A stretch of DNA of 64,000 nt, from the IMG/VR virus record IMGVR_UViG_3300031578_000015. One strand, given 5' to 3'. This stretch comes from an uncultured virus (IMG/VR IMGVR_UViG_3300031578_000015) (Duplodnaviria > Heunggongvirae > Uroviricota > Caudoviricetes). Below, piece after piece: positions 3,634 through 63,650 of the stretch. A program made the translations under genes and the position numbers. The first letter of the stretch is position 1, and the number at the start of each line of letters is the position of its first letter. A model generated the notes under the pieces. The model saw only the letters and a program-made list of their open reading frames with translations. It searched no databases and was not told the origin of the DNA.

Positions 3634-3641
3634 TTTATTTT

Positions 3642-3683
3642 CTCCTTATCTATATTATACATCATCTTTAATAATTTTTTCAA
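3642..3683 (-). promoter_or_regulatory. sigma70-type promoter with recurring AAGATGATG-TATAAT box plus SD
   Basis: Minus strand reads TTGAAA-N18-TATAATATAGATAAGGAG. Related boxes occur near 4630, 14990 and 27220 (minus) and 29740 and 31815 (plus). Confidence 0.6.
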
Positions 3684-9499: not shown

Positions 9500-10536
9500 C
9501 AGTCTAATTGCATCGGCATAACGATATGGTTACTATTATCCGTATAAATAAAAGTAATAGCTCTTACAAATTCGGTAAATTGTATTTCCTTTAATGATTT
9601 CAATGTCAAAACATCATTCAAGTATTTATAATTGATTGCTAAAGTAGTATTTTTGTATTCTCTAGTTTCATCATAAAATCCTTTCCATTGCATCGACCCC
9701 ATATTCTTATTTTCCCATTCAACAAAAACCATATCATCTTTATTGTGCTTAATCATTATTCTCTCAGTTGTATCCTTGTTTTTCAATTGCATTATTTTTG
9801 AATAAATATCTTTCCATTCAATCAAATCAGGAATGCCAATTGTATAAGTTTGCTTTTCAGGAACTACTTTACGCCAATTAGGAAATTGCCCTTCAATATT
9901 CGTCGTACAATAATATAGAATTGATCCTTTGTATTCAAATTGGAATACTGAAAACTTCTTATCTATTTTATATTTTATATTTGAACCTTTTTTCAATAGC
10001 CATTCTAAGCATTTTGTATTAGGCAGAATAACCGCCGGGAACTTGTCAAATCCTGATGAATGAAAAAGCCTTCGTCCATCAGTGGCAGCTACATTGCCAT
10101 CATCAAAATAAATGCCATTCATGAAATATCTTGTCTCATCATCTGAAATAAACTTGAAGGCATTTAACATCAATTCTGCTTGCACATCATTTATATTTAC
10201 ATATTCTCCAGTCAAATCAACTTCAATTTGTGGAAACTTTTCCAGGTTATTTTGATTGCTATTGAACCCATCCAGCTTTTTGAATGCCTTGCTCAGATTG
10301 TATTCATAAACACCGTTTTCTTCATTCCCATTGTAATCCATAAACAGGAAACTTTTGATATTTGTTACTTGCAGTCTATTTTCATTCTTGGCAATATAGG
10401 AACAAATAGACAGACTGTTTTTTGACAAATCCATGTGTGAAGCAACGTCTAAAAAAGCATTGACAGGGTCAACTACAATTTGTTTCTTTTCATGCTTTGA
10501 TTCATGCTTGATCTCTTCCCCAAATATATTTACCAT
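9499..10536 (-). CDS. dnaN: sliding clamp (DnaN/beta-like), copy 2
   Basis: FISDDETRYFMNGIYF...AATDGRRL, IEGQFPNWRKVVP, AINYKYLNDVL and a C-terminal IVMPM are DnaN signatures. Confidence 0.8.
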   Translation of the reverse strand: MVNIFGEEIKHESKHEKKQIVVDPVNAFLDVASHMDLSKNSLSICSYIAKNENRLQVTNIKSFLFMDYNGNEENGVYEYNLSKAFKKLDGFNSNQNNLEKFPQIEVDLTGEYVNINDVQAELMLNAFKFISDDETRYFMNGIYFDDGNVAATDGRRLFHSSGFDKFPAVILPNTKCLEWLLKKGSNIKYKIDKKFSVFQFEYKGSILYYCTTNIEGQFPNWRKVVPEKQTYTIGIPDLIEWKDIYSKIMQLKNKDTTERIMIKHNKDDMVFVEWENKNMGSMQWKGFYDETREYKNTTLAINYKYLNDVLTLKSLKEIQFTEFVRAITFIYTDNSNHIVMPMQLD

Positions 10537-14622: not shown

Positions 14623-15089
14623 ATTACCACAACCTCCCCATTGAAACTATTAGATGCCTTTATAGCAGTATCCTCAGAAACATATTTATAGGCCCTTTCT
14701 ATATCAATTGTCAAAATAACCTTTGAACGCTTATATGAAACAACCTTTTGTATATAATAAATGAAAATATCCTTAGATACTTTAACGATATATTTCATTA
14801 GAAAATGATGCCAATTAAAAATCCAATAATAGTACCAAAAACTAAACCAATAATAATTCTTGAAACATGAATATAAACAAGTAAAGGAGTCCAATTTTCC
14901 TTTTTATCTAATTGCATGTCTACTGCTTCTTTATAGCCGATTTTACAATATTCTTTAGTTACCTTATAAGTCATATTTTCTCCTTATCTATATTATATAT
15001 CATTAAACAAAATTTTTTAACACATTCTGCATAATATTATTCTGGTTGAATATCTTGTCTTTTTCCTTTCCATCAAACAATTTCCCTAA

Positions 15090-16553
15090 TCATTTTAGAT
15101 TTTTCATAATTACTTCATCAAAACTATAATTAAAAAGCGTAATATCCTTTTTTCCGTCAAGTATCATAGAAATTGCTTTGAAACTTTCTTCTATATTATC
15201 AGCTATTGAGTTTTCTATAGTTCTATTGGCAAAGGGGAAATATACCATTGCTCTATCTGCTTTTTGTCCTGGCCTATCTATTCTACTTAATACTTGTATT
15301 AATTGTCCTGGCGTATCTGGTATTTCTACTATTGCGATTCCTTCACTTACGGATAAAGTTAATCCCTCTCCCCCTGCTTCTGTTTGAATAAAAATCAATT
15401 TTACTTTTTTATCAGTTTGGAATCTATCTTCTGCCAATTGCCTTTTTGCATCTGTAGAAACCGAACCATCTATTTTTACTGCAATGCTTTTATATCTAGT
15501 ATATAAATCATCCATTACATTTTTATGCCAAACAGATACAACTAATTTATCATGGTCTTCTAAATACTCATCTATCCAAACGAAAAGCGCATTTCTTTTT
15601 GCCAAATACGCTAATCGTTTTAATTTGCTAAAACTATTTTTTACCTCTAATTTATTTCTATTGCCTTTAATTAATTCCTTTAATTCATTGCTAATATTGA
15701 TATAATTTTTTTCTTCTAATTTTGTTAATTCTAATGGAACTACAACAAATATAGGGTCTTTTCTAAACTTGTTCTGTATAATCATTATTTTTTTTAATTT
15801 CGCGTGTAGTTCATCTTCATTTGATGAGCCATTAAATTCCCATCCTCCTTTATATCCAATAGAAGGCCCACAATAATGCCAATAAAAATAATATTCACGA
15901 GGAAATAAATTAGGGGCTGTTAAATGCAAAATAGTCCATAATTTTTTAGGGTATTTTCTGGTCAATGTACCTGATAAAGGAATAAATACTTTTGGTTTTA
16001 TTGTTTTCATCATTTCATTTAAACACATTGTCCAAATAGCCTTGGGATTACCAAATTTATGAGCTTCATCAGGAATAATACCTGTAATACCTAATTTAGC
16101 TAATTCCTTCCACCAACCCTCTAATCTTACAATTCCTTTTTTATACCTATGTTTTTTATAATTTGATCCTTCTTTTTGTTTTCTTAATAATTCTTCTTTG
16201 TCAAATAATGCTTTTCGCTTGTTTTCTAGTTTTCTATCCTTAATATTTTCTTTGCCCAATATATGATAATTTATAATATAATAATCATAATTTTTTGGTA
16301 ACGAATATGTTTTTTCACCTGATAGTATATATGAATCTTTCCCTGACCATTTTTTTATCTCCCGCGCCCATTTTAACTTCATTGATTTTGTACATATAAT
16401 TATATATTTTCCAGGATAACTAATATCCATTGTTCCAATAGTTTCTATTGTTTTACCTACGCCACATTTTGAACCGTTAATAGCATAACCATTACGATCC
16501 TCTACGAACTTAATTGCCTTTTTTTGATGTGGAAGATACTTTAATCTATCCAT
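15090..16553 (-). CDS. SNF2-family helicase/ATPase; likely start ATG 16553, coupled to the endonuclease stop
   Basis: YLPHQ, GVGKT, DEAH, LSGT, KIDGS, AGGEGLTL, SRIDRPGQ. Confidence 0.9.
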   Translation of the reverse strand: MDRLKYLPHQKKAIKFVEDRNGYAINGSKCGVGKTIETIGTMDISYPGKYIIICTKSMKLKWAREIKKWSGKDSYILSGEKTYSLPKNYDYYIINYHILGKENIKDRKLENKRKALFDKEELLRKQKEGSNYKKHRYKKGIVRLEGWWKELAKLGITGIIPDEAHKFGNPKAIWTMCLNEMMKTIKPKVFIPLSGTLTRKYPKKLWTILHLTAPNLFPREYYFYWHYCGPSIGYKGGWEFNGSSNEDELHAKLKKIMIIQNKFRKDPIFVVVPLELTKLEEKNYINISNELKELIKGNRNKLEVKNSFSKLKRLAYLAKRNALFVWIDEYLEDHDKLVVSVWHKNVMDDLYTRYKSIAVKIDGSVSTDAKRQLAEDRFQTDKKVKLIFIQTEAGGEGLTLSVSEGIAIVEIPDTPGQLIQVLSRIDRPGQKADRAMVYFPFANRTIENSIADNIEESFKAISMILDGKKDITLFNYSFDEVIMKNLK

Positions 16554-17217
16554 TTTTTCTTTTTCTAGTTTCCCACATTTTCTTACTAGCAACGCTTATC
16601 TTTTCTCTTGTTTCTTTTGTATGTTTTCTTCCTTTTCCTTTTAAGCCTATTAATATTTTAGTTTCTTCTGAATGCCTAAATCCTCTTTTTGCATTACCCA
16701 TTTTTATTCTTGTTTCTTTAGAACGTTTTATTCCCTTATTCCAAGTATTACCTATTTTTGCAATTCTTAATTTTTCAATAGTTTCTGGGCTATGCTTTCT
16801 TCCTTTTCCGGCGGCACTAACTCTTCTTTTAGTTTCTTCCGTTACAGGAGCCTTAAACATAGCAGCTATTCTCATTTTTCTTCTTGTTTCCTTTGAATGA
16901 TGAAGCCCTTTGAAAAATCCTATCTCTCCTCCATAAGTAATATTATATCCAATTTTTTTATTAGTTGAATCATACAATTCGATAAACAATCGTTCAGCTT
17001 CTTCTAATCTCTTTATTGTTTTTACCCAATATAATATTTTAACTTTGAAATTTTCCTTCCCATATTTTTTCAAAGCATTTTGAATTGCTTTTCCACTACC
17101 AAAATATTTCTTGTCAAAATATGTTTTTCGATGTTGTCCAATATAAATCTTACCATTTATAAGATTAGTTGTCATATAAATATAACCAATAACATTTTCT
17201 GGTTTGTTTACTTTCAT
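16546..17217 (-). CDS. GIY-YIG homing endonuclease with NUMOD3 repeats
   Basis: GYIY...NGKIYIGQH, YFGSG, GYNIT and repeated HS/TxETxxK motifs. Confidence 0.92.
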   Translation of the reverse strand: MKVNKPENVIGYIYMTTNLINGKIYIGQHRKTYFDKKYFGSGKAIQNALKKYGKENFKVKILYWVKTIKRLEEAERLFIELYDSTNKKIGYNITYGGEIGFFKGLHHSKETRRKMRIAAMFKAPVTEETKRRVSAAGKGRKHSPETIEKLRIAKIGNTWNKGIKRSKETRIKMGNAKRGFRHSEETKILIGLKGKGRKHTKETREKISVASKKMWETRKRKNG

Positions 17218-17227
17218 TTTTAACTAA

Positions 17228-17350
17228 ACAAAAATCCTTAATGGGGTGGGCTGGTAGACCTTCATCGATACGCGGATATCGATTCACCCCATTAAGGATT
17301 CTCATAACCTCCGCGAATAATTTTAGATACATTGCTACCACAACATATCC
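17228..17350 (-). ncRNA. putative structured 5' leader (three stems, two pseudoknots) upstream of the GIY-YIG gene
   Basis: 16-bp perfect outer stem 17300-17285/17248-17233; inner hairpin ATCGATA/TATCGAT; 5' hairpin; loop pairings TGGTAG/CTACCA and CGCGGA/TCCGCG. Confidence 0.6.
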
Positions 17351-17358
17351 ATGCATAT

Positions 17359-17387
17359 AATATATACTCCTTTTGTCAAAATGTAAA
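17359..17387 (-). promoter_or_regulatory. promoter TTTACA-N17-TATATT at the cassette boundary
   Basis: Read directly on the minus strand, starting where the helicase remnant breaks. Confidence 0.55.
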
Positions 17388-17474
17388 GCCCCATTTCATC
17401 GGCAAGTAAACCAATGCCATTAACGGACTCAATCCAGTTTATTCCTTGCTTCTGAAAAGGGCGTAATTTATCAT
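17386..17474 (-). pseudogene. orphaned, frameshifted 5' end of an SNF2 helicase gene
   Basis: Reads KLRPFQKQGINWIESVNGIGLLADEMGL and breaks just before the expected GKT; the ATG at 17474 is one base out of frame. Confidence 0.8.
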
Positions 17475-17479
17475 TTCAA

Positions 17480-18604
17480 TCAGCCCCCAGCCTTGAAATT
17501 ATAAACAGGCTTTACAAAATCAATTATATCAACAGTATCTTTAATATTATCAATAATAGTTTGCTTATCTTTGTATGCTCCTGGAGCTTCATCAATAGTT
17601 TCTACATTTGCCGTAGTTGTATAAATGCCTTCCATTTGTTCTCTAAATGTAACTACAGACAATTCCTTTTTAGCTTGCGTCCTAGATAATATCCTACCAG
17701 CACCATGAGGAGCAGAATAATTATATATCGAATTTCCTTTGCCTTTACATATTGCTAGTCCATCTCGCATATTGAAAGGAATAATTACTAATTCATTTTC
17801 TCTTGCTGGAGTTGCTCCTTTACGAATAATATTATCATCCCCAATGAAATTATGTACAGATTCAATTTCCTGTAATGAACCATACCCTAAATATTCAGTT
17901 ATTCTATTCATCATTTCCCATCTATTTAACGATGCAAACTTTTGGGCAACTTTCAAATCACGAATATAATCTTGCCCATCCTTTTCATTAGTCAATAGAA
18001 ATTCTAAATCCTTATATTCATTTCCAATAAAATACTTTTTCAAATTAGCTTTAGCAATTGATTGATAATAATTAGCAACTTTCAATCCAAAATTCCTACT
18101 TCCAGAATGAATAGTTACCCAATAATTATTTTCAGAATCTTTGCCAACCTCACAAAAATGATTGCCCGAACCGAGCGACCCGATAGCACGTAATGCTTTT
18201 TTATAATCTTCTAGGCCAATATTTTTACAAACTTCTTGCACTTCATCCTTGAAATATAAACCTGTACTTTCTGTAATATTGTTATTTATAGAAAATCCTG
18301 ATGGGATATTTTTCTTAATAAAATCATCAAACTTTGGCAAATCAATATTTTCTATTGCAAACTTCCTAGATAACATCCCACAGCCGATATCGACCCCGAC
18401 TATGTTAGGAATTATATAATCATTCATTTTCATGGTAAACCCAACTACAGCGCCTTTGCCAGCATGACAATCAGGCATAATGGCAATATGAGTATTAGCA
18501 AAAGCAGGATGATTCAGAAAACCTTGTATTTGTTCTTTTGTAGTTTCATCAATAGCATCAATCATAATATGGGCAAAGTTATATTTACCTTTCATTACAA
18601 ACAT
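17480..18604 (-). CDS. rtcB: RtcB RNA ligase
   Basis: MPDCHAGKG, VGVDIGCG, GSLGSGNHF, HSGSR, HN, RKGATPA, SAPHGAGR, DEAPGAYK. Confidence 0.95.
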   Translation of the reverse strand: MFVMKGKYNFAHIMIDAIDETTKEQIQGFLNHPAFANTHIAIMPDCHAGKGAVVGFTMKMNDYIIPNIVGVDIGCGMLSRKFAIENIDLPKFDDFIKKNIPSGFSINNNITESTGLYFKDEVQEVCKNIGLEDYKKALRAIGSLGSGNHFCEVGKDSENNYWVTIHSGSRNFGLKVANYYQSIAKANLKKYFIGNEYKDLEFLLTNEKDGQDYIRDLKVAQKFASLNRWEMMNRITEYLGYGSLQEIESVHNFIGDDNIIRKGATPARENELVIIPFNMRDGLAICKGKGNSIYNYSAPHGAGRILSRTQAKKELSVVTFREQMEGIYTTTANVETIDEAPGAYKDKQTIIDNIKDTVDIIDFVKPVYNFKAGG

Positions 18605-22559: not shown

Positions 22560-22644
22560 TGCCGGGGAGGGGATTTGAACCCCCATGCCATTGCTGGCGA
22601 CGGATTTTAAGTCCGTAGTGTCTTGCCAATTTCACCACCCCGGC
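22560..22644 (-). tRNA. tRNA-Leu, anticodon UAA
   Basis: GCCGGGG acceptor stem, ACGGA-CTTAAAA-TCCGT anticodon arm, long variable arm, GGTTCAAATCC T-loop; no encoded CCA. Confidence 0.93.
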
Positions 22645-22652
22645 AAGTATTC

Positions 22653-22727
22653 TAGGCCATCTTGGATTTGAACCAAGGACATCCACCTTATAAGGATGGC
22701 GCTGCTAACCATCTGAGCTAATGGCCC
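22653..22727 (-). tRNA. tRNA-Ile, anticodon UAU
   Basis: GGGCCAT/ATGGCCT acceptor, TAGCTCAG D-arm, CCATC-CTTATAA-GGTGG anticodon arm, GGTTCAAATCC. Confidence 0.9.
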
Positions 22728-22736
22728 TTGTTTTTT

Positions 22737-22997
22737 TTATGCTAGCACTTTCCTTGCTTCCCGCAGATTGAGCAAAACTGTATTGGCGTTGTATTCATTG
22801 ACGATTGCCAATTTTGCAACGCGCCTACTCCAAGTTTTTGAGTAGACATTGACATAAGAGAAAAGCTTATATTTGCAATCTTCTATTTCATAATATTGCC
22901 ATGATCTTTCTGATACTCTGACATAGGGCTTTTTCTGGTGGTTTGCCTGATTGATCTTTACCATCATTTCAAGTGCTTCGGTTTTGGTTAGTTTCAT
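22737..22997 (-). CDS. early hypothetical protein, paralog of 24706-24960
   Basis: Shares KINQANHQKKPYV and LxSYVNxYSKxWSRRV with 24706-24960. Confidence 0.75.
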   Translation of the reverse strand: MKLTKTEALEMMVKINQANHQKKPYVRVSERSWQYYEIEDCKYKLFSYVNVYSKTWSRRVAKLAIVNEYNANTVLLNLREARKVLA

Positions 22998-24705: not shown

Positions 24706-24960
24706 TTAAGTAGTTTGTAGGGCTTTCCTGGCCTGGCGAAGATCCAGATATTTCCCGCCAGCATTGACGAGCTTGCATACCCTACGACTCCAGCGCTTGC
24801 TATATATATTGACATAGCTATATAGGGTATAAGGACTGGCTTCGATTTCCCTGATCCATTCCCCACGATCTGATACAGGGACATAGGGCTTTTTCTGGTG
24901 GTTTGCCTGATTGATCTTTTCCATCATGGCCAGCGCTTCAACTTTGGTTAAGGTGCTCAT
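24706..24960 (-). CDS. early hypothetical protein, paralog of 22737-22997
   Basis: Shared peptide and DNA blocks with 22737-22997. Confidence 0.75.
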   Translation of the reverse strand: MSTLTKVEALAMMEKINQANHQKKPYVPVSDRGEWIREIEASPYTLYSYVNIYSKRWSRRVCKLVNAGGKYLDLRQARKALQTT

Positions 24961-25589: not shown

Positions 25590-25787
25590 TCATTCATCTA
25601 TCTCATACTTAGTACAATCACATTCATTTTGGGCATACAAATATTCTATTTCATGTATAATTTTATCTAATTCAATTACCACATTAGAAAGATGATTACT
25701 ATTAGAGCCCCCAGCTACCCATAATCTATAAGCCCAATCAGAAAAAGTATGATTAATAGGTATTGTATTTTTTGGTAAATGTTTCAT
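25590..25787 (-). CDS. hypothetical protein
   Basis: Coupled to the upstream ORF by overlap. Confidence 0.5.
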   Translation of the reverse strand: MKHLPKNTIPINHTFSDWAYRLWVAGGSNSNHLSNVVIELDKIIHEIEYLYAQNECDCTKYEIDE

Positions 25788-27013
25788 TTATCTATCCCAT
25801 GCTCATCTTTTTTCTGACTGATAAACCAATCCCATGTCTGGCATTTTGTGCCGAAATGCTTCAAGTATTTTCGCCCTAGATTATTCAGAAAATCAAAATA
25901 TTCTTCCATGAACTTGTTGCTTCCACCATCAAGCCAATATCTATAATTGATATTTTCTTCAATCAAATCCTCAGCATTATCCTTGTACCATTTATAAACA
26001 GAATAAATCCTATTCCAGTACGCGAAGCTATCCCATTCATCATTGTAAAAATACATGAACTTGTTTTGAATATAGGTAGGCAATCGATTATAAGTATTTT
26101 CTGCAATGACTTCACGCGTCTTACTAGCCTTTTGCATAATTGTGATATAGAACATTGAAGTTTGTTTGATTGGATAATACATGAAAGATCCAATGTCTCT
26201 AGTTAGCCATTCTTTATTTTCTGATTCCCTATCAAGTTCAAACCAAGTAATATAATTCCTAGCTGCACATTGTAAAACCATAGATATTTGATTCCAATTA
26301 CCTTTGCAATCATTTACCTCTTTTGTAGTTTCATTGCTTATATAATAATTATTCTTTTCTACAAACCAATCAGCTAATGGATGGCGAGAATTGAACCTGC
26401 CTTCATAAAGATCATAGCAAGCATCTTGGAAATGTTTCATTGATTTAGTATGGATTTTATGGTCAGTAGGGAGGGTGAAGCTGAATAGTTTCTTGCCATC
26501 AGTAAGTCTAAGTCTATCTAATTCTAACAATATTTTTTCTACATTAGGATTCAATGAACTAATAATATCTTTCTTTTTTAACTTTTCCTGCTTAGGTAGA
26601 GGAAGTCCTAATTCATCAAATCCGGCCATGTTATTACTCTCCATAATTTCTAGGATATTTGGCCTAAATCTAAAATATACTTTATTACCTTTTGTCTTAT
26701 GATCCCAATTATTATATTTTTTTAGTGGATATTGATTCTCATTGAACTGACCTTCTCCACAAATCCTTTTTAGCATTTTACCAATTACTACTTTATTAGT
26801 GATATACAAAGTAGGAAGGTCGCTCAATACTTTATCATACCATATCCAATAATATCTTTTTGGCTTTTCATCTTTATTGTCTCGAACGTCTATATAATCA
26901 ATATTAGATGATTGCATATAAGTTAATAACCATCGTAAAACTACTGCATCTGACATAGTTAAATGTAATTTCAATAAATAATCTTGTCTGAATCCTTCAA
27001 TAGTGTTTCGCAT
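25784..27013 (-). CDS. putative replication initiator/organiser with N-terminal winged-helix-like domain
   Basis: N-terminus TIEGFRQ...DAVVLRW...YYWIWYDKVLSDLP resembles phage replication-protein N-termini. Confidence 0.5.
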   Translation of the reverse strand: MRNTIEGFRQDYLLKLHLTMSDAVVLRWLLTYMQSSNIDYIDVRDNKDEKPKRYYWIWYDKVLSDLPTLYITNKVVIGKMLKRICGEGQFNENQYPLKKYNNWDHKTKGNKVYFRFRPNILEIMESNNMAGFDELGLPLPKQEKLKKKDIISSLNPNVEKILLELDRLRLTDGKKLFSFTLPTDHKIHTKSMKHFQDACYDLYEGRFNSRHPLADWFVEKNNYYISNETTKEVNDCKGNWNQISMVLQCAARNYITWFELDRESENKEWLTRDIGSFMYYPIKQTSMFYITIMQKASKTREVIAENTYNRLPTYIQNKFMYFYNDEWDSFAYWNRIYSVYKWYKDNAEDLIEENINYRYWLDGGSNKFMEEYFDFLNNLGRKYLKHFGTKCQTWDWFISQKKDEHGIDK

Positions 27014-27044: not shown

Positions 27045-27205
27045 AACAAAACCCTTTCATGGTCTACGGCTCGCCGGAATATAGATGCCCACATTCAAAT
27101 AGCTTCTATGATTCCCCGTAGCCCATGAAAGGGCTTATTGGAACGATAGAATGTGAATTGTAAAAAGAACTGCTAGAAAATCTTTGCGAGGAGATCGTCT
27201 AGCTT
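27045..27205 (-). ncRNA. putative structured 5' leader with the same topology as 17228-17350
   Basis: Outer stem GCCCTTTCATGG-CTACGG/CCGTAG-CCATGAAAGGGT, inner hairpin, 5' hairpin; pairings CTCGC/GCGAG and TTCACATTC/GAATGTGGG; promoter TTTACA-N18-TATACT upstream. Confidence 0.6.
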
Positions 27206-27341
27206 CAATGGAGATAGTATACATCATCTTCCTAGAGAATGTAAAGTACCTAGAAAATAAAAGTAATGTGAAGCTTTGCTTCTACTTGTTTATATTACTA
27301 TATAAACTATATCTATTAGTAATGTATTATGTATTATAGCG

Positions 27342-27876: not shown

Positions 27877-28932
27877 TTATTGACTTATCAATTCCTTTGC
27901 ATGTTTAACAAAAGTACTAAATGTTCTTGGGCTATTATCTCTTGGCTGTAATTTCCATATTAAATAATTTTCAATATCAAGTAGTTCTTTTGTATTTATA
28001 TTTCCAAGATCAAACATTCTAACACGATCAAAAATCTTACCACTTGCTTTATGCTGATTTATTCTATTTGGCCATTGTGTTTGTGTTTTTCCTATATATG
28101 TAATTTCATCCCCTTCTATCAAAAAGTATATTTTTGAAGATTTCTCATTGACATAATATTCAGTATCAAAAATATTGTGTTCTTTATAGTTATCAGATAA
28201 TATAAACAGTATCTGCTTAAAAAAAACATTTTTTTCTGTATCAATATGTAATAATTGCTCCATTTGCTTCATTTGCCTTTTATAGTTAATGAGATCAGAT
28301 TCAAAATTATATAGTATGAGTTTTTTTTCGTTAATTTGTAATATTATACTATTTAATATATTCTGATAAATATCAGGATATTCTAGTCTAAACTTTCTTA
28401 TTTTGAGTAACTTATTTGTCTGTATTAGTATCTCCTCATTTAAATTGTCTATTGTTTCTTTGTGTTTTTGGTAATTAGGCTTTTTCTTGTATATTACTTC
28501 ATCCATATGTGCTTGTAGCTGTCCATATTTCAATCTTAATTGTTCAAATATGACTGTTCTAATAAAGAATATAAGTGTTTTTGTTTCATTTTCTTCAAAA
28601 TTTATGTGTAATTTAAAATTGTATATAAATATATTTATATCTTCAATGGGATTATAGTAATCTGGAAGATGTGCTGGAGTAAATTGATTTAATAATGCAA
28701 TTTCAATCCCATATTCTTCTTTGTTATTTTTACCATTAATATTTATTCTTGCTGATAAGGCATAATCGTTAATATTTTCTTTGCTAAGTAACATTTTACT
28801 TATGTGACTTAAGCTAAATTCTATATATAGGTATTGTAAATCAGATTTTATTCTATAACAATTTTCTTTTTCAAGATAAGGGTCAAATATAAATGAATTT
28901 AATACTCTTTCCAAATCTGCTATATTAGTCAT
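27877..28932 (-). CDS. coiled-coil protein with C-terminal GIY-YIG-like domain
   Basis: KIYFLIEGDEITYIGKT...RINQH...IENYLIWKLQPRDN. Confidence 0.6.
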   Translation of the reverse strand: MTNIADLERVLNSFIFDPYLEKENCYRIKSDLQYLYIEFSLSHISKMLLSKENINDYALSARININGKNNKEEYGIEIALLNQFTPAHLPDYYNPIEDINIFIYNFKLHINFEENETKTLIFFIRTVIFEQLRLKYGQLQAHMDEVIYKKKPNYQKHKETIDNLNEEILIQTNKLLKIRKFRLEYPDIYQNILNSIILQINEKKLILYNFESDLINYKRQMKQMEQLLHIDTEKNVFFKQILFILSDNYKEHNIFDTEYYVNEKSSKIYFLIEGDEITYIGKTQTQWPNRINQHKASGKIFDRVRMFDLGNINTKELLDIENYLIWKLQPRDNSPRTFSTFVKHAKELISQ

Positions 28933-29553: not shown

Positions 29554-29739
29554 AAAATCCCCCCTATCAACTTAATGGCAAGGCTACAATGCCCGCTTGT
29601 TAAAACTATTATATATCAGCTTTTCCAAAATAAAACATTAAAAAGCAGATTTCCGAACGATTTTAGAATATTTCCTCATTTTTTCACTATACGTCTGTTA
29701 AGTAAAGAATATGCGAAAAGATAGTCAAAAAATGTAAAG

Positions 29740-30066
29740 ATGATGTATAATAGAACTAGGGAAAGCAAAATAGTAAAAACCAAAGGGAGAGAAAAGATGG
29801 GAAAGAGAGATTGGAAGATTTTTCAGGTTTCTAAAGAACAGTTTATTGCAGTTATTCCTCCAGACAATGCTAAATGGAAGATTGAGTGGCATAAGACGTT
29901 TGAGGGGCTTTATGGGGCACAATATTATGATGATCGGTATAAGAGTGAATTTTGCCTTCAAGCATTCAGATCTTTTTCTTCTGGAAAGGAAGCCGCTGAT
30001 TACATTAAGGGAATAGAAGAAAGAAGTGATTGTTTCGTTATGGATGTTACAAAGGAATATCTGTAA
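29740..30066 (+). CDS. hypothetical protein, first gene of the right arm; likely start ATG 29797
   Basis: GGGAGA SD; follows the AAGATGATGTATAAT promoter box. Confidence 0.6.
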   Translation: MMYNRTRESKIVKTKGREKMGKRDWKIFQVSKEQFIAVIPPDNAKWKIEWHKTFEGLYGAQYYDDRYKSEFCLQAFRSFSSGKEAADYIKGIEERSDCFVMDVTKEYL

Positions 30067-31790: not shown

Positions 31791-31939
31791 CGATTGTCTA
31801 TACAAAATCTTGTAAGATGATGTATAATATAGATAGAGGTTGAAAAAGATAGCCTTTATAAAACGTTGTGGTTAGGCCGTCTTATCGATCATGGCCGAAA
31901 ACCAATATCGATCTGCCTTTGGCAGTGAGAAAATAGCAA

Positions 31940-39384: not shown

Positions 39385-40212
39385 TTGAAATATTTATTGC
39401 TTATCCCTGCTATTGTATTTTTCTCATTATTCACTGCTTGGCCATTAGGCGAAGTTATTGTATTATCCTTATATAAAACTAATTTCATAACTACAAAATT
39501 TATAGGTATTGATAACTATATAGCTATTTTTTCAGATTCTGATTTTATCACAAGTATTTTCAATTCATTATTTTATTGTTTTCTAATGGTGCCAGGGGAA
39601 TTATTATTAGGACTAGGATCAGCATTTTTGATTTTCAAGCTATCCAAAAAATGGCAAGACGTTTCTAGGATTATTTTCTATATTCCTGTATTGACCGCTG
39701 GTATAATAATAGCACAAATATGGAAATGGATTTTTCATATTGATGGTGTATTTAATTGGTTTATTAAATTGATAGGTTTATCTCCTATTAATTATTTTGG
39801 AGATTGGTATTCAGCTATTCCTACTGTAGCATTTATAGTTATTATTGGATCGTTCGGAGCTAATACTATTATTTTCTTAGCTGCGATGCAAAGTATAGAT
39901 AAATCATTATTTGAAGCTGCTGAAATTGATGGGGCTTCTTTTAGGCAAATAAAATATAGAATAATACTACCTATGATAATGCCAACTATTAGTCTTGTTA
40001 CATTATTGACTATCATTGCTTCATTTGGAGTAATAGAAACAATAATGATGCTAGTTCCGCAAAGTTATGCGGCTACTGTCACTTATTCAATATATCGAAG
40101 TGGTTTCTTATTTTCAAAATATGGAATAGCGAGCGCGGAAGCAATAGTATTTTTGGTTATTATGATATCATTATCATTATTGAAAAATAGGATAGAGAAA
40201 AATGAAAGGTAA
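39385..40212 (+). CDS. carbohydrate ABC transporter permease (MalF/UgpA-like)
   Basis: FIGIDNY, multiple TM segments, EAA loop LFEAAEIDGAS, YGIASA. Confidence 0.92.
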   Translation: MKYLLLIPAIVFFSLFTAWPLGEVIVLSLYKTNFITTKFIGIDNYIAIFSDSDFITSIFNSLFYCFLMVPGELLLGLGSAFLIFKLSKKWQDVSRIIFYIPVLTAGIIIAQIWKWIFHIDGVFNWFIKLIGLSPINYFGDWYSAIPTVAFIVIIGSFGANTIIFLAAMQSIDKSLFEAAEIDGASFRQIKYRIILPMIMPTISLVTLLTIIASFGVIETIMMLVPQSYAATVTYSIYRSGFLFSKYGIASAEAIVFLVIMISLSLLKNRIEKNER

Positions 40213-40390: not shown

Positions 40391-41178
40391 AAAAACATAA
40401 CAAAACAATTCAAAATAATTCTACTCTTTATTTAGGTGATTGTTTGGAAGTAATGAAAATTATTCCCGATAAAAGCATTGATATGATATTGTGCGATTTG
40501 CCGTATGGAACTACGGCCTGTAAATGGGATGTAATTATTCCATTTGAACCATTATGGGAACAATATAATCGTATAATAAAAGACAAATGTGCAATTGTTT
40601 TGTTTGGATCAGAGCCATTTACGAGCATTATGATAACAAGTAATATAGATGGATATAAATATAATTGGGATTGGAATAAACATATTCCTAGTGGTATTAG
40701 TTATGCTAGATGGAGACCAATGCAACAAACCGAACAAATAGCAATATTTTCTAATACTGGTAATAAAATTAATTATTATCCTCAAATGATAAAACGCGAT
40801 ATTTCAATAAAATCAGGTGGAACAAATCCATCTGAAACTGCTCCAATACGATATAAAGATAAAAATTTCAAAAAAACTTATGATTATAAAAATCCAATTA
40901 CACTTATTGAATTTACTAAAATAAGAAAAGGCAGTTTGCACCCTACCCAAAAACCAGTAGCATTATTAGAATATCTAATTAAAACATATACATTAGAAAA
41001 TGAAGTTGTTCTGGATAATTGCATGGGATCAGGTTCAACTAAAATTGCTTGTATAAATACCAATAGAAAGTTTATTGGTATCGAAAAAGATGAAAAGTAT
41101 TTTAATATAGCTTGTAATAGAAAACCTGGGGACAAGAAACAAATTGAAAAGAAAAATATAGGATTCAATTTTGATTAG
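40387..41178 (+). CDS. site-specific DNA methyltransferase (N6-A/N4-C, beta class)
   Basis: GDCLE, DLPYG, HPTQKP, VLDNCMGSGST. Confidence 0.92.
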   Translation: MKKHNKTIQNNSTLYLGDCLEVMKIIPDKSIDMILCDLPYGTTACKWDVIIPFEPLWEQYNRIIKDKCAIVLFGSEPFTSIMITSNIDGYKYNWDWNKHIPSGISYARWRPMQQTEQIAIFSNTGNKINYYPQMIKRDISIKSGGTNPSETAPIRYKDKNFKKTYDYKNPITLIEFTKIRKGSLHPTQKPVALLEYLIKTYTLENEVVLDNCMGSGSTKIACINTNRKFIGIEKDEKYFNIACNRKPGDKKQIEKKNIGFNFD

Positions 41179-41989
41179 AAAAATAGTTCTATTGATATTT
41201 TTCATATTGTTATTAGCACCTGTTTATTTTATGATTATAGGATCATTTCAAGATACTGGCAGACTCATGACAATGCCACCTAAAATAATACCTAGCAATA
41301 TTATATATTCTAATTACACTTTCTTTTTCAATAATTTTCCGGTATTTCTATGGGTATATAATACCATGTTTATAGTGTTTTTTACTGTTATTATATCTAC
41401 TATTACTTCATTAATGACTTCTTATGTGTTTGCTTATTATAAATTCAAAATGAAAAATGTTTTATGGACAATATTTTTGATTGGAATAATGCTTCCTAGA
41501 ATATCAATATTGATTCCTACTTATGTGATAATAAAGGAATTAGGAATAGCTGGACAATTATGGGCGGTTATTTTGCCTATTTGTTTTTCGCCATTTGGAA
41601 TATACTTAGCTAGGAATTATTTTGAATCTATTCCAATATCGTTATTAGAAAGTGCAAGATTAGATGGAGCTAATGAATTACAAATTTTATCAAAAATAGT
41701 TGCTCCATTGTCAAAGCCTATAGTTACGGCGCTGGCATTGTTTTCTTCAATTAATGCTTTACAAGATTATGTATGGCAAATGTTAGTATTACAAAAAGAA
41801 AGTTCGCAATCATTATTAGTTGGATTGATTAAAGCAAGTATGTTAAGAGGAGGTGGAGATTTGAATTTCAACTCTGTCGGTAAATCTATGGCTGTTGGCG
41901 TTTTATTGATGTTGCCTTTATTGATTATTTTTATAGTGGCTAATAAGTATTTTACTAAGGATATGTTATCCGGGGCGGTAAAAGAATGA
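41171..41989 (+). CDS. carbohydrate ABC transporter permease (MalG/UgpE-like)
   Basis: SYVFAYYKF, LIPTY, EAA loop LLESARLDGA, PLSKP, QDYVW, KYF...GAVKE. Confidence 0.92.
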   Translation: MIRKIVLLIFFILLLAPVYFMIIGSFQDTGRLMTMPPKIIPSNIIYSNYTFFFNNFPVFLWVYNTMFIVFFTVIISTITSLMTSYVFAYYKFKMKNVLWTIFLIGIMLPRISILIPTYVIIKELGIAGQLWAVILPICFSPFGIYLARNYFESIPISLLESARLDGANELQILSKIVAPLSKPIVTALALFSSINALQDYVWQMLVLQKESSQSLLVGLIKASMLRGGGDLNFNSVGKSMAVGVLLMLPLLIIFIVANKYFTKDMLSGAVKE

Positions 41990-55277: not shown

Positions 55278-55634
55278 ATGGCATTAAGGGATATGTTGAA
55301 TATAGTAAATGGAGTCTCTATCATCAAAACTACGTCAACTAATGATGGAATGGGTGGAATGACTTCAACTACTATAACTACAGTAATCCCTTTATGTGCA
55401 TTATGGCAAAATTCTAGTACCAATAAGTATATCTATGACAAATATGCAATGAATAGTTCTCATATTTTATGTTTTGAATATGGCGCTTACACTTTTAATG
55501 TTCCTGATAGTAGTGGAGGAACAGTTATTGAAACAGTATCTCATAATGGATCAATATATAATACTATGGGATTTCAAAATGATTATATGGATTTTCATGA
55601 AATAGTCACAATGAACTTGGATAGATTATCATGA
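55278..55634 (+). CDS. head closure protein
   Basis: DGMGG motif, SSHILC and gene order. Confidence 0.65.
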   Translation: MALRDMLNIVNGVSIIKTTSTNDGMGGMTSTTITTVIPLCALWQNSSTNKYIYDKYAMNSSHILCFEYGAYTFNVPDSSGGTVIETVSHNGSIYNTMGFQNDYMDFHEIVTMNLDRLS

Positions 55635-57160
55635 GCATGGTCAGAATCGATTTAAAAAAGAAATGGGATGGCTCTATTGTTAAATTATTAGGGAAAAAGG
55701 TAATAGATAAAAGTATATATGAAGTTGGATTGATTGTAGAAGGGAATGCCAAAGAATTAGCGGCTAAAAATTATGGTTATTTAGCAGCTAGTATCAATAC
55801 ACAATTTCAAGGTGGGGGAGATGAATTAGAAGATCCTAGTAAATATGCTAAAGAAATACCCCCAGTAGGGCATAATGTTGAAACATTTAGAAAAATACAA
55901 GCACCTTCACAAGAGGAAGTCGTGTTTGTTGGTACTGCGGTTGATTATGCTTGTATTTTTGATGGGCATACTAATATAAAAGTACAAGGAGGAAAAGGGT
56001 ATAAGGTTATATGTCAAATAAAAAAAGGGGATATGGTATTAACACAAACTGGAGAATATCATAAAGTAATTGAAACATTCAAAAAACCTGCTATACTATC
56101 TCCAGATTTAATTGAAATTATTTGCGAGTATAGAAAAAATAGAAATCACAAATTGATAGTGACCAAAGAGCATAAGATATTGGTTTTTAGAGATGTGCGA
56201 AATAAATGGGTTAAGGCAGAAGAATTATTATTAACCGATAAACTATTTTCTTTGAAAAAGAAAGAACCAAATAAAGGAAAAGGACTTCATAGGAACTGTT
56301 TACAATGTGGAAAAGAATTTCAGCCTCCAGGTCATAATGAGATTCATCAATATTGTTCTATGGATTGTAGGAATGAATATTGGAAAATTAATGGCAGTCC
56401 TAATATTGGTAGTAAGAGGACTAAAAAAACTAGAGACAAAATGAGTTTACTTAAAAAGAAGTATTTTGAATTGAATCCAGAAAAACATCCTAATCGGATA
56501 ATGAATAAAAAGGGATATCAAACCGATGTTGAAAAAACTATTGAAGATTGGTTGATTGAACAACAAGTACAATATGAAAAACAAAAAAGAATAGGAAGAA
56601 TATATGCTGATTTTTATTTACCTATTACAAATGAAATATTAGAAGGAGATGGAGCTTTTTGGCATTCAAACCAAAAAAAGGATATTGAAAGAGATAAATA
56701 TATAAAAAGTATTGATCCAACTATTAAAATAACTCACATGCACTTTTATGATAAACGATTTTCTAAAAATATAAATAGAAATCCATTAGAAAATGTATAT
56801 TATCAGGTATGTAATCCAAGTCCTAAAAGTTATGTTAATATGGGGGATTTTGAGTGTAGAAAAATTGTCTCTATAAAACCAATCAAGTATGGTGAAAATA
56901 TAAAAAAACATGCCAGTACACAAGCATATGTTTATGATTTATCGGTTGAAGGTGTTCATTCATATTATGCTAATGGCATATTGGTTTCTAATAGTCATGT
57001 GGAATTTGGAACTGTAAAAATGGACGCTCAGCCTTTTCTCAGGCCAGCAGCTGATATGGCACAAGGAAAAGTATTAGAAACAGTAGAGGCTAATGGTAAA
57101 CAACATTTTCTTGGTTATTTGCGACAGCATGAAGAATATTTACAAAGTAGGGGATTATGA
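55631..57160 (+). CDS. HK97 gp10-like neck/tail-completion protein interrupted by an intein
   Basis: Exteins join to VGTAVDYA|SHVEFGTVKMDAQPFLRPA, the gp10-family motif. Confidence 0.88.
   Translation: MSMVRIDLKKKWDGSIVKLLGKKVIDKSIYEVGLIVEGNAKELAAKNYGYLAASINTQFQGGGDELEDPSKYAKEIPPVGHNVETFRKIQAPSQEEVVFVGTAVDYACIFDGHTNIKVQGGKGYKVICQIKKGDMVLTQTGEYHKVIETFKKPAILSPDLIEIICEYRKNRNHKLIVTKEHKILVFRDVRNKWVKAEELLLTDKLFSLKKKEPNKGKGLHRNCLQCGKEFQPPGHNEIHQYCSMDCRNEYWKINGSPNIGSKRTKKTRDKMSLLKKKYFELNPEKHPNRIMNKKGYQTDVEKTIEDWLIEQQVQYEKQKRIGRIYADFYLPITNEILEGDGAFWHSNQKKDIERDKYIKSIDPTIKITHMHFYDKRFSKNINRNPLENVYYQVCNPSPKSYVNMGDFECRKIVSIKPIKYGENIKKHASTQAYVYDLSVEGVHSYYANGILVSNSHVEFGTVKMDAQPFLRPAADMAQGKVLETVEANGKQHFLGYLRQHEEYLQSRGL
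55952..56992 (+). mobile_element. intein (347 aa) with zinc finger and Vsr/DUF559-like endonuclease
   Basis: Starts CIFDGHT; block B VTKEHKIL; CLQC...YCSMDC; ADFYLP...EGDGAFWH; ends VYDLSVEGVHSYYANGILVSN before Ser. Confidence 0.9.
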
Positions 57161-61995: not shown

Positions 61996-63650
61996 GAATA
62001 GCATATGAAAATATTATTGATGATTTAAATGCCTCAACGTTGACTGCTTTAACTACTGCAACTGGATATTCTATATTAGATGTTCAAGATCAGAGATTGA
62101 CCACTCAATGGCGAAGCGGTTCTTTTGTTGTGGGGGCATCTGCACAAACTATAACTATTGACTTTGGTTCCGCTAAAAAAATAAATACTGTTGCTATTTT
62201 AGGGCATGATCTATCTTTAGGCGAATTCCAAAATATTCAGCGTTTAGGATCAGAAATATATGTTCAAAGTTTAGCTTCGTTAGGATCAGGAATAGTAATA
62301 GCCGGTACTGCCGCTACTGGGCAAATATATAGATCATTGGATTCCGGCTCTAGTTGGACTAATATTCAGCGTTTAGGATCAGAAACACAGATATTAAGTT
62401 TAGTATCGTTAGGATCAGGGATAGTAATAGCCGGTACTTATCCTACTGGGCAAATATATAGATCATTGGATTCTGGTTCTAGTTGGACTAATATTCAGCG
62501 TTTAGGATCAGAAACACAGATATTAAGTTTAGTATCGTTAGGATCAGGGATAGTGATAGCTGGTACTGGAGCAACAGGTCAAATATACAGATCATTGGAT
62601 TCTGGTTCTAGTTGGACTAATATTCAGCGTTTAGGATCAGAAACATATGTATATAGTTTAGCTTCGTTAGGATCAGGAATAGTAATAGCTGGTACTGCCA
62701 CTACTGGGCAAATATATAGATCATTGGATTCTGGTTCTAGTTGGGCTAATATTCAGCGTTTAGGATCAGAAACATATGTTAATAGTTTAGCATCATTAGG
62801 ATCAGGAATAGTAATAGCTGGTACTGCCACTACTGGTCAAATATACAGATCATTGGATTCTGGTTCTAGTTGGACTAATATTCAGCGTTTAGGATCAGAA
62901 ACATATGTTAATAGTTTAGCATCATTAGGATCAGGAATAGTAATAGCTGGTACTGCCACTACTGGGCAAATATATAGATCATTGGATTCCGGCTCTAGTT
63001 GGACTAATATTCAGCGTTTAGGATCAGAAACACAGGTGCCGAGTTTAGTATCGCTAGGATCAGGAATAGTAATAGCTGGTACTGGAGCAACAGGTCAAAT
63101 ATATAAGTCGGAATTATATATCACAATTATGGGAAATGCTGTGAATTCATGGACTGCACCATCTGTTATTGAAACATTATCATGGAATGAAGGTGCAATA
63201 CTTAAATTTATAACTGATGCGCATTATCAATATTGGAGATTTTCAATAGCAAACTCTAGTAATTCTAATGGTTATGTACAAATAGGCAGATTATGGTTAG
63301 GAGATTATATTACCATTGATCCTTCATCATTATTAGATTTTAAAGTAATAAAGAAAAGATCAGATCAGGTTATTTATGGACGCAATAGACAAAAATGGGC
63401 AAATATAGGAGTAGGATGGAGACAATTTACATTTAATTTTCCACCTACACAAGAAGCTACATTACAACTAATTCAAAATATGTATGATACTGTAGGCAAT
63501 CATAGTTCATTTATTTTCTGTAATTTCGATACCATTCGCGATTATAAATTAGTAGAGCCTTGTTATGTATCAATAAATGGGGATTTAACTTTCTCACATG
63601 ATAATAGAATGAAGTTTACTTATCAATTAATTATGGAAGAGGATAAATAA
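61992..63650 (+). CDS. tail protein with inserted seven-repeat Asp-box (BNR) beta-propeller
   Basis: Follows the tape measure gene; YRSLDSGSSW Asp-box in the repeats; flanks include QYWRF and QIGRLWLG. Confidence 0.8.
   Translation: MRIAYENIIDDLNASTLTALTTATGYSILDVQDQRLTTQWRSGSFVVGASAQTITIDFGSAKKINTVAILGHDLSLGEFQNIQRLGSEIYVQSLASLGSGIVIAGTAATGQIYRSLDSGSSWTNIQRLGSETQILSLVSLGSGIVIAGTYPTGQIYRSLDSGSSWTNIQRLGSETQILSLVSLGSGIVIAGTGATGQIYRSLDSGSSWTNIQRLGSETYVYSLASLGSGIVIAGTATTGQIYRSLDSGSSWANIQRLGSETYVNSLASLGSGIVIAGTATTGQIYRSLDSGSSWTNIQRLGSETYVNSLASLGSGIVIAGTATTGQIYRSLDSGSSWTNIQRLGSETQVPSLVSLGSGIVIAGTGATGQIYKSELYITIMGNAVNSWTAPSVIETLSWNEGAILKFITDAHYQYWRFSIANSSNSNGYVQIGRLWLGDYITIDPSSLLDFKVIKKRSDQVIYGRNRQKWANIGVGWRQFTFNFPPTQEATLQLIQNMYDTVGNHSSFIFCNFDTIRDYKLVEPCYVSINGDLTFSHDNRMKFTYQLIMEEDK
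62232..63110 (+). repeat. seven tandem 129-bp (43-aa) repeats, last one partial
   Basis: AATATTCAGCGTTTAGGATCAG recurs every 129 bp from 62232. Confidence 0.95.

Follow-up and report, generated by a model that had tools for sequence, protein, structure and literature searches.

Genomic setting

The analysed window is a stretch of 64,000 nucleotides that makes up most of an uncultured tailed-phage contig (IMG/VR record IMGVR_UViG_3300031578_000015). It carries genes for a terminase, portal, major head protein, tape measure, DNA polymerase and clamp loader. The matches of the primase, considered as a pointer to the host, were at best 23-27% identical. A candidate structured RNA lies on the minus strand between the following genes:

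17480-18604, minus strand: rtcB RNA ligase gene (PF01139), upstream neighbour of the RNA element
16546-17217, minus strand: free-standing GIY-YIG endonuclease of the SegE type with NUMOD3 repeats, 223 aa (PF19835 and PF07460 above cut-off)
15090-16592, minus strand: SNF2-type helicase gene, downstream, its probable ATG overlapping the nuclease stop codon

The rtcB gene is the upstream neighbour in the window phage only, other loci with the RNA having different neighbours, and a link to RtcB was rejected for this reason. The non-coding spacer between the rtcB stop codon and the -35 box before the RNA (17388-17479, minus strand, about 90 nt) is longer than in most other loci. Two public RNA runs yielded sparse contigs without ends and in small shares (0.11 and 0.07); one contig of 171 nt spans 17309-17479 and shows neither ends nor transcription.

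Structure of the RNA

Judged from its sequence, the region of about 125 nt before the nuclease gene is a genuine and uncatalogued RNA fold with the following elements:

17351-17324, minus strand: H1, 5' hairpin of 11 bp including G-U; its loop TGGTAG (17340-17335) is the kissing partner of the H4 loop
17315-17310, minus strand: linker strand CGCGGA of pseudoknot 2, pairing with the H3 loop
17300-17285 and 17248-17233, minus strand: 5' and 3' arms of stem S, terminator-like, 16 perfect base pairs
17283-17264, minus strand: H3, inner hairpin with loop TCCGCG (17276-17271)
17249-17260, minus strand: H4, 3-bp hairpin with loop CTACCA (17257-17252), preceded by an invariant GAA junction
17234-17226, minus strand: U-rich tract directly 3' of the stem, a putative termination site, present in all aligned RNAs

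A sequence-only reading of the window had described the hairpin, the linker, the 16-bp stem, the inner hairpin, a CTACCA strand and the U-rich tract before the ATG, and each of them lies where it was placed. The same reading had claimed perfect 6-nt complements for both loops. This holds, and when the unpaired letters were shuffled 2,000,000 times, 61 of the shuffles had both complements. It had, on the other hand, taken CTACCA for a plain strand. The pairing with H1 stands, but CTACCA is the loop of the H4 hairpin, whose 3-bp stem is kept in 8/8 aligned RNAs. The H1 pairing is thus of the kissing-loop type, and S, H3 and H4 meet in a three-way junction at the core. The H4 stem is nearly invariant, and the covariation described below does not prove it.

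The fold is more stable than all of 200 shuffled sequences (z = -4.88), and no inverted repeat longer than 12 bp occurred in 5000 dinucleotide shuffles. With a G-U extension stem S reaches 21 bp. The nuclease ATG at 17217 lies 15 nt past the end of the stem. The invariant unpaired bases are the AAA after H1 and the A and GAA junctions.

A stable stem is immediately followed by a U-tract, 3' of a promoter-like box and 5' of a gene, as in terminators and attenuators. The loop, about 36 nt, lies outside the canonical range of 3-8 nt, and a simple terminator scan found no candidates. No alternative (antiterminator) helix sharing the terminator strand is common to the nine loci analysed below, and the pseudoknot strands do not overlap stem S.

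The search of the whole window against Rfam 15 at the gathering threshold returned only two tRNAs. At E <= 10 the best match of the element had 16.3 bits and all matches were far below threshold, and the same was true of a second, related element of the window (instance 2, see below). This bears out the earlier failure to assign the RNA to a known family.

Homologues and covariation

The RNA family comprises ten loci, the window and nine further ones from related phages. Scanned for the topology of the fold, the window and 79 GIY-YIG loci yielded both elements of the window and one clear homologue, L004, in which both pseudoknots are rewritten in other letters. Pattern scans extended the set: L118 and L123 came from a scan with 3 true members in 46 matches; L169 and L182 from another, with four true members among at least 240 matches, two of them L004 and L118 again; and L470, L480 and L481 from a further one with 7 true members in 14 matches, four of them previously known. 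A covariance model added a second copy in the phage G003 (L373, 356-533). This copy was left out of the analysed set of nine loci (eight distinct RNAs), since its RNA and flanks match L481 and its nuclease gene runs off the contig.

The family appears to be narrow. Two partly overlapping sets of 78 further GIY-YIG loci each were searched with the covariance model and no member was detected, so that, within this sampling, all members come from this one phage lineage. No true member was present among the at least 120 matches listed for a pattern scan of genome contigs. All ten blastn matches in cultured phages were at chance level (E 3-9), and none of the four matches of an exact 16-mer scan had the structure. 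On the other hand, a pattern scan of metagenomes gave at least 120 matches, which indicates that the family is undersampled.

The absence of covariation in the pseudoknot pairs among homologues had been set in advance as a result that would speak against the fold. These pairs do covary. Counted sequence by sequence, the kissing helix has six perfect pairs in 9/9 loci, in five sequence variants, and pseudoknot 2 has 6-7 perfect pairs in 9/9 loci, in four variants. In the alignment of eight RNAs, 28 of 46 pairs show two-sided change, compared to 3-6 in slid controls; none of 500 shuffles was as high, a figure that does not translate into a probability given the kinship of the aligned sequences. 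Two-sided changes were seen in 8/8 counted pairs of H1, in 7 of the 16 pairs of stem S (100% of cells paired), in 6/7 pairs of H3 and in 4/6 pairs of the kissing helix, where they include transversions and all positions are paired in 8/8 RNAs. Pseudoknot 2 is only 67-78% paired in automatic alignments, as members differ by one base in its register; the per-sequence count is the better measure.

A mobile promoter-RNA-endonuclease cassette

A GIY-YIG gene follows the RNA in 10/10 loci, within about 25 nt of the stem. The shared sequence starts at a -35 box, usually a few bases past the stop codon of the upstream gene, and the loci fall into five insertion sites. The cassette precedes a helicase gene (window, L118), follows a membrane-protein gene (L004, L123), precedes or follows a clamp-like gene (L169, L480) or precedes a primase gene (L182, L470, L481). 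A duplicated 3' end of the host gene is clear in L004 and weaker in L123 and L480; it was not seen in the other loci. The protein has an N-terminal GIY-YIG domain, a C-terminal NUMOD3 part and an optional presence between conserved genes, as do homing endonucleases; its cleavage activity is predicted. By comparison of these sequences, the RNA belongs to a mobile cassette of promoter, RNA and nuclease in a narrow phage lineage. In seven phage records, such an RNA lies upstream of 9/9 GIY-YIG domains found by profile. As possession of the RNA was the reason for choosing these records, the count is non-circular for the two additional G003 cases only.

The RNA and the protein are not inherited as a matched pair. 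L480 and L481 have identical RNAs at different sites, and their nucleases are 34% (N-terminal) and 24% (C-terminal) alike. The RNAs of the window and L169 are 93% alike, and the C-termini of their nucleases 22%. Conversely, loci at the same site have different RNAs (67% for L004 and L123, 69% for L182 and L481), and two of the same-site pairs have similar nuclease tails (89% and 68%). The RNA thus follows neither the nuclease nor the site, which argues against a cognate inhibitor as well as a guide, and points to a portable module that acts on the host machinery. The earlier label of an endonuclease-associated RNA is therefore apt for the genomic linkage, seen in 10/10 loci, but not for a guide or cognate partner, the more so as related leaders of replication genes also occur where no nuclease is present.

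Other interleaved inverted repeats (10-11 bp) occur directly before a GIY-YIG gene in L037 (2903-3008) and L068 (735-840); they do not belong to the type-1 family, that is, the family of the first element. In L021 (2921-3095), a 17-bp stem with 9- and 6-base complements lies near the start of the GIY-YIG match.

Promoter-like box, ribosome entry and leader frame

Upstream of the fold and across it lie the following candidate signals:

17387-17359, minus strand: promoter-like box of the sigma-70 type, TTTACA-17-TATATT (10/12 match), at the 5' edge of the cassette
17367-17372, minus strand: Shine-Dalgarno-like (SD-like) site in the promoter spacer, present only on transcripts from upstream
17165-17356, minus strand: leader reading frame of 63 codons through the whole RNA, ending out of frame inside the nuclease gene

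The promoter-like box has the same spacing in 9/9 loci, with TATAAT as the -10 box in two of them. It ends 8 nt before H1, and the RNA would begin a few bases after it. The SD-like site of the spacer has predicted energies of -7.2 to -7.5 kcal/mol in 7/9 loci and is absent from two; one of these, L169, has a stop-start overlap, and the other, L004, has an SD-led frame of 22 codons that ends at the 3' end of H1. Ribosome entry is thus predicted upstream of the predicted start site of transcription in 9/9 loci, confined to transcripts from upstream. In contrast, the nuclease ATG has no SD within 16 nt in 9/9 loci; for comparison, 25 of the 29 window genes tested have an SD of -3 kcal/mol or lower.

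The leader ATG sits just after the -10 box, and a stop-free frame runs through the RNA in 8/9 loci, the other frames having 1-11 stops. The leader peptide is not conserved, and its frame relative to the nuclease varies (0, +1 and +2 all occur). Once descent is taken into account, a lineage would keep the frame free of stops with a probability of 0.41-0.66 (from tests on five co-framed RNAs), and an open leader frame is present in 76% of column chimeras. The evidence for selection on the frame is moderate. The open frame in eight and the SD in seven of nine loci are sequence counts, and translation is predicted.

Several simpler modes of control were rejected. Sequestration of an SD by the stem does not fit, as no SD exists at the nuclease AUG in 9/9 loci, and AAGGA, an SD-like sequence of the stem, is missing in three loci and sits at too great a distance from the ATG. 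Programmed frameshifting joining the leader and the nuclease was dismissed because the relative frames differ between loci. No conserved antisense promoter was found: consensus-like sites occur in 6/9 loci, scattered, and none is in the window.

Leaders of the replication operons

The second element of the window and the gene that it precedes are:

27045-27205, minus strand: instance 2, double-pseudoknot terminator leader (type 2), with a promoter-like box at 27245-27216
25784-27013, minus strand: probable replication protein, 409 aa, after instance 2

Instance 2 had been proposed as a second example of the same element. The order of strands is the same and the base of the terminator stem is similar, but it belongs to a different sequence family, as the type-1 covariance model does not detect it at E <= 1. 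In G003, a homologue retains the two pairings, with three changes that are compensatory, as read from the alignment; there the type-2 leader is followed by a GIY-YIG gene and then by a homologue of the 409-aa protein. A type-2 pattern scan gave one true, previously known member in 13 matches. G003 carries three RNA copies with different loop sequences.

The 409-aa protein has no Pfam or PHROG family, and its 33 homologues are "hypothetical" wherever named. Its Atlas feature neighbours are phage replication proteins (score 0.94-0.95); they serve as a lead only, and the protein is probably a replication protein. The same operon in the phages G004 and G007 opens with a simpler leader, in which, as read from the sequence, 7 bases of a hairpin loop pair with those of the terminator loop. 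These single kissing-loop terminator leaders (type 3) lie at L492 (G004 C1, upstream of 63208) and L493 (about 2060-2190), and the 7-bp loop-loop match has different letters in the two phages.

With instance 2 included, a kissing-loop terminator leader heads the operon of the replication protein in 4/4 phages examined. In three of the four it is followed by a normal SD, so the leader must be leaky or switchable; this is the main argument for attenuation. G003 looks like an intermediate by which a nuclease could have captured the leader. As read from the sequences, type-2 leaders have no shared reading frame.

A conserved imperfect palindrome with an AT-rich flank was observed upstream of the promoter of the replication operon in 4/4 phages (window, 27270-27283, minus strand; L492, L493 and L494). 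Half of it recurs inside the inner hairpin of type 2. It may be an origin or an operator.

Mode of regulation

The attenuator was the best supported of the three earlier proposals, the others being a ribozyme-like fold and an endonuclease-associated RNA; the support is anatomical. Transcription attenuation, in one direction or the other, is a probable function of the RNA, and it most likely limits the amount of nuclease made. In favour count the covarying helices and pseudoknots, the position between promoter and gene, the conserved U-tract and the same logic, a hairpin kissing the terminator loop, at the replication operon in 4/4 phages.

As to the direction, we tentatively favour, at somewhat under even chances, a compact fold that terminates and is overridden by translation on operon transcripts. 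By sequence comparison, the fold consists of H1, stem S, the three-way junction, the H1-H4 kissing loop and the linker-H3 loop pseudoknot, and ends at the U-tract. Stem S and the U-tract would form an intrinsic terminator with an unusually large loop. Since the junction and both clamps belong to the same fold as the terminator, the folded state would be the stop state. Most transcription from the cassette's own promoter would stop after about 125 nt and yield a compact RNA; the fraction passing the terminator, translated without an SD, would give little nuclease. Transcripts of the host operon would bring along ribosome entry that own-promoter transcripts lack; the ribosome would melt the 5' domain and usually the stem too, termination would be suppressed, and the downstream helicase, primase or polymerase genes would remain transcribed. 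Such an override presupposes transcription-translation coupling in the host, itself putative. The module may derive from, or share ancestry with, the kissing-loop leader of the lineage's replication operon.

Override by translation is favoured by the upstream ribosome entries in 9/9 loci. Against it count the weakness of the leader frame once descent is allowed for, its varying register and the absence of a shared frame in type 2. A broader version of the hypothesis is possible but doubtful: gating of the terminator would need no strand exchange, the loop clamps tying the large-looped terminator to a 5' domain 60-90 nt upstream, which would report the passage of a ribosome (or pairing by earlier RNA copies). 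The lineage would dose its replication protein in this way, and selfish nucleases would have captured the device as a portable governor of expression, allowing insertion in essential operons without polarity.

Three-dimensional models of the stem and the pseudoknots bear on the direction of the switch. They are crude, their helix coordinates are general values, and strand passage is outside their scope. In the rigid-body model, the run of which stopped at its time limit, the 16-bp core coexists with both pseudoknots, and the 21-bp wobble-extended stem misfits pseudoknot 2 in 7/7 starts (closest approach 39.6 A, compared to 32.5 A allowed), which counts against the favoured reading. In coarse dynamics, 16/16 pairs zipped in 3/3 runs with the pseudoknots and likewise in 3/3 controls. 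Two other dynamics sets zipped 0-14 pairs with controls also unfinished, and the first geometric model had a noisy, inconsistent geometry. Steric or topological (threading) exclusion of the stem by the pseudoknots was rejected, as the 16-bp core zips with the pseudoknots as in controls. With support for exclusion thereby removed, one compact terminating fold overridden by translation is favoured over all rivals.

The strongest rival has the opposite sign and is, in our estimate, unlikely yet credible: the pseudoknots would form co-transcriptionally and hinder the terminator sterically at the exit channel of the polymerase in a tug-of-war, so that the folded RNA is read through and an unfolded 5' domain leads to termination. 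The strand order lets both pseudoknots form before the stem is complete, and the extended stem could not coexist with pseudoknot 2 in the model. Upstream pseudoknots and hairpins are described as lowering termination without sequence overlap (10.64898/2026.06.17.733018, accessible part), which points in this direction. However, the effect described in that part depends on a spacer a few bases long and weakens when hairpins are strong; here, most members have 8-9 nt at this point, and the stem comprises 14-16 bp or more. The models show no block of the 16-bp core, and a leader frame through the stem, open in 8/9 loci, would, if translated, oppose termination.

Action in trans is less probable still. 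Type III antitoxins are RNAs that inhibit a toxin, and the CI RNA of phage P4 acts on nascent leaders; by analogy the released RNA of about 125 nt could inhibit the nuclease or pair with nascent leaders as a feedback or immunity RNA. The promoter-like box, the terminator-like end, the compact covarying fold and the invariant junction bases would suit such an RNA, as would the lack of an SD at the nuclease and the different loops of the three G003 copies. A promoter mainly yielding a terminated, elaborately folded RNA also fits a stand-alone product. On the other hand, there is no cognate pairing of RNAs and nucleases (L480 and L481; window and L169), related leaders exist without a nuclease, and all loop sequences are tied up in cis.

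We consider it improbable that the fold is a riboswitch-like sensor, in which termination would depend on a bound small molecule or protein, the latter being either the nuclease or a host factor. The three-way junction with a kissing loop and the invariant unpaired bases recall such sensors. However, these bases are few, no Rfam riboswitch is matched at E <= 10, the simpler single-kiss leaders lack such a core, and the downstream genes suggest no ligand.

Even less can be said for processing of the nuclease mRNA by a self-cleaving ribozyme or by what is left of a self-splicing intron. The double-pseudoknot fold is of ribozyme size and rtcB lies upstream in the window, but no ribozyme or intron family of Rfam is matched at the gathering score or at E <= 10, rtcB adjoins in the window only, and the RNA lies between genes, not within one; a group I core is longer than this RNA. 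The proposal of a ribozyme-like fold thus found no support among the known classes. Finally, a guide or scaffold for an RNA-guided GIY-YIG nuclease, by analogy with the omega RNA of IscB, is hardly credible even though a nuclease gene directly follows in 10/10 loci: the loop segments that vary are paired inside the RNA itself, no variable unpaired guide following the target site was seen in the nine loci, identical RNAs occur at different sites and different ones at the same site, and the proteins have NUMOD3-type DNA-binding tails, which, unlike the RNAs, are alike in two same-site pairs.

Comparison with known systems

Free-standing homing endonucleases of T4-like phages have intrinsic terminators 5' of mobE and segF and hairpins sequestering the ribosome-binding site at I-TevI, I-TevII, I-TevIII, segB and Aeh1 mobE, with a further hairpin at seg43(25); in the accessible text, these terminators and hairpins are said to damp the endonucleases (PMC2988022). 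The likeness is a free-standing endonuclease in a phage operon with a 5' RNA structure, long and own-promoter transcripts being expected to behave differently. The T4-type structures, as described there, are single hairpins and terminators with 4-nt loops, whereas here the terminator loop is a three-way junction held by two pseudoknots. Moreover, the whole RNA lies downstream of the promoter-like box, and no SD is hidden in it: the arrangement of the T4-type hairpins, an SD about 8 nt before the AUG that is paired and a promoter in the 5' arm, was not found, as 9/9 loci lack the SD.

The pyrL leader senses UTP through pausing. In the pyrBI operon of E. coli, a ribosome suppresses a terminator within the leader frame (PMC5021804, in part). 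The window RNA would resemble this, its terminator-like stem lying inside a putatively translated leader frame, with a coupled ribosome as the proposed suppressor. The pyrBI leader has no pseudoknots, and here the SD of the leader lies inside the promoter, so that only read-through transcripts would be translatable.

In tug-of-war riboswitches, according to the available portion of the source, tertiary structure affects a terminator without shared strands (10.64898/2026.06.17.733018). In the RNA described here, too, the tertiary domain and the terminator do not overlap. However, the ligand-binding structure of those riboswitches lies 0-4 nt 5' of the hairpin, whereas here the upstream RNA docks onto the loop of the hairpin. 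The spacer before the Watson-Crick stem measures 8-9 nt in 5/9 loci and more in the others, and Rfam revealed no known aptamer.

Control by the ColIb-P9 leader is translational and needs an antisense RNA. The rep leaders of I-complex plasmids contain a pseudoknot (repY/repZ of ColIb-P9) that interacts with antisense RNA, as given in the accessible part of PMC10286972. They share with our RNAs the long-range loop pairing and, putatively, a translated leader peptide before the downstream gene, and instance 2 precedes a probable replication protein. In contrast to them, the nine loci have no conserved antisense promoter, and the second hairpin is terminator-like.

Fremin et al. (2023) listed phage RNA candidates within 25 nt of GIY-YIG genes in IMG/VR, 11 rows being labelled GIY-YIG in the portion available (PMC10690425). 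Six of these, compared by their table entries, are 58-97 nt long, as against about 125 nt here; overlap of our family with one candidate is possible.

Apart from the general anatomy of a terminator, the RNA lacks defining features of the systems compared; the leader frame is a candidate match to that of pyrBI. A terminator loop docked by two pseudoknots without shared strands was not found in Rfam or in the searches of openly accessible literature. It offers a natural test case for such docking to upstream RNA, in which the natural loop-swapped variants and single-kiss relatives are ready compensatory pairs. If correct, the favoured reading would account for the presence of a toxic homing endonuclease, promoter included, within replication operons, and would provide a transcription switch that is both small and orthogonal. 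Should the released RNA act in trans, it would add a new regulator to the RNAs of phage mobile elements.

Other features of the window

The two tRNA genes found in the Rfam search are adjacent (22560-22727, minus strand). Together with rtcB, they suggest a defence against tRNA-cleaving host systems.

Two further reading frames may be related to mobile nucleases. The 509-aa ORF at 55631-57157 (plus strand) has a C-terminal match to a neck protein and HNH-endonuclease matches in the middle, and possibly contains an inserted nuclease or intein. The 351-aa ORF at 27877-28932 (minus strand) has a GIY-YIG-like motif by eye in its C-terminal part; it has no Pfam or PHROG match and was missed by the GIY-YIG family profile. 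Two membrane proteins (39385-40209 and 41171-41986, plus strand) match PHROG 1577, of unknown function; they presumably resemble ABC-transporter permeases, unusual for a phage.

Several repeats were also observed. A unit of 129 bp occurs in seven tandem copies at 62103-63176, inside a gene of the tail region. A direct repeat of 82 nt (22909-22990 and 24869-24950, 87% alike) lies in two small paralogous genes. A repeated promoter-like element with an SD, judged by its sequence to be probably the main promoter type of the phage, occurs at 3636-3683, 9955-9996, 14974-15021, 29726-29770 and 31803-31847.
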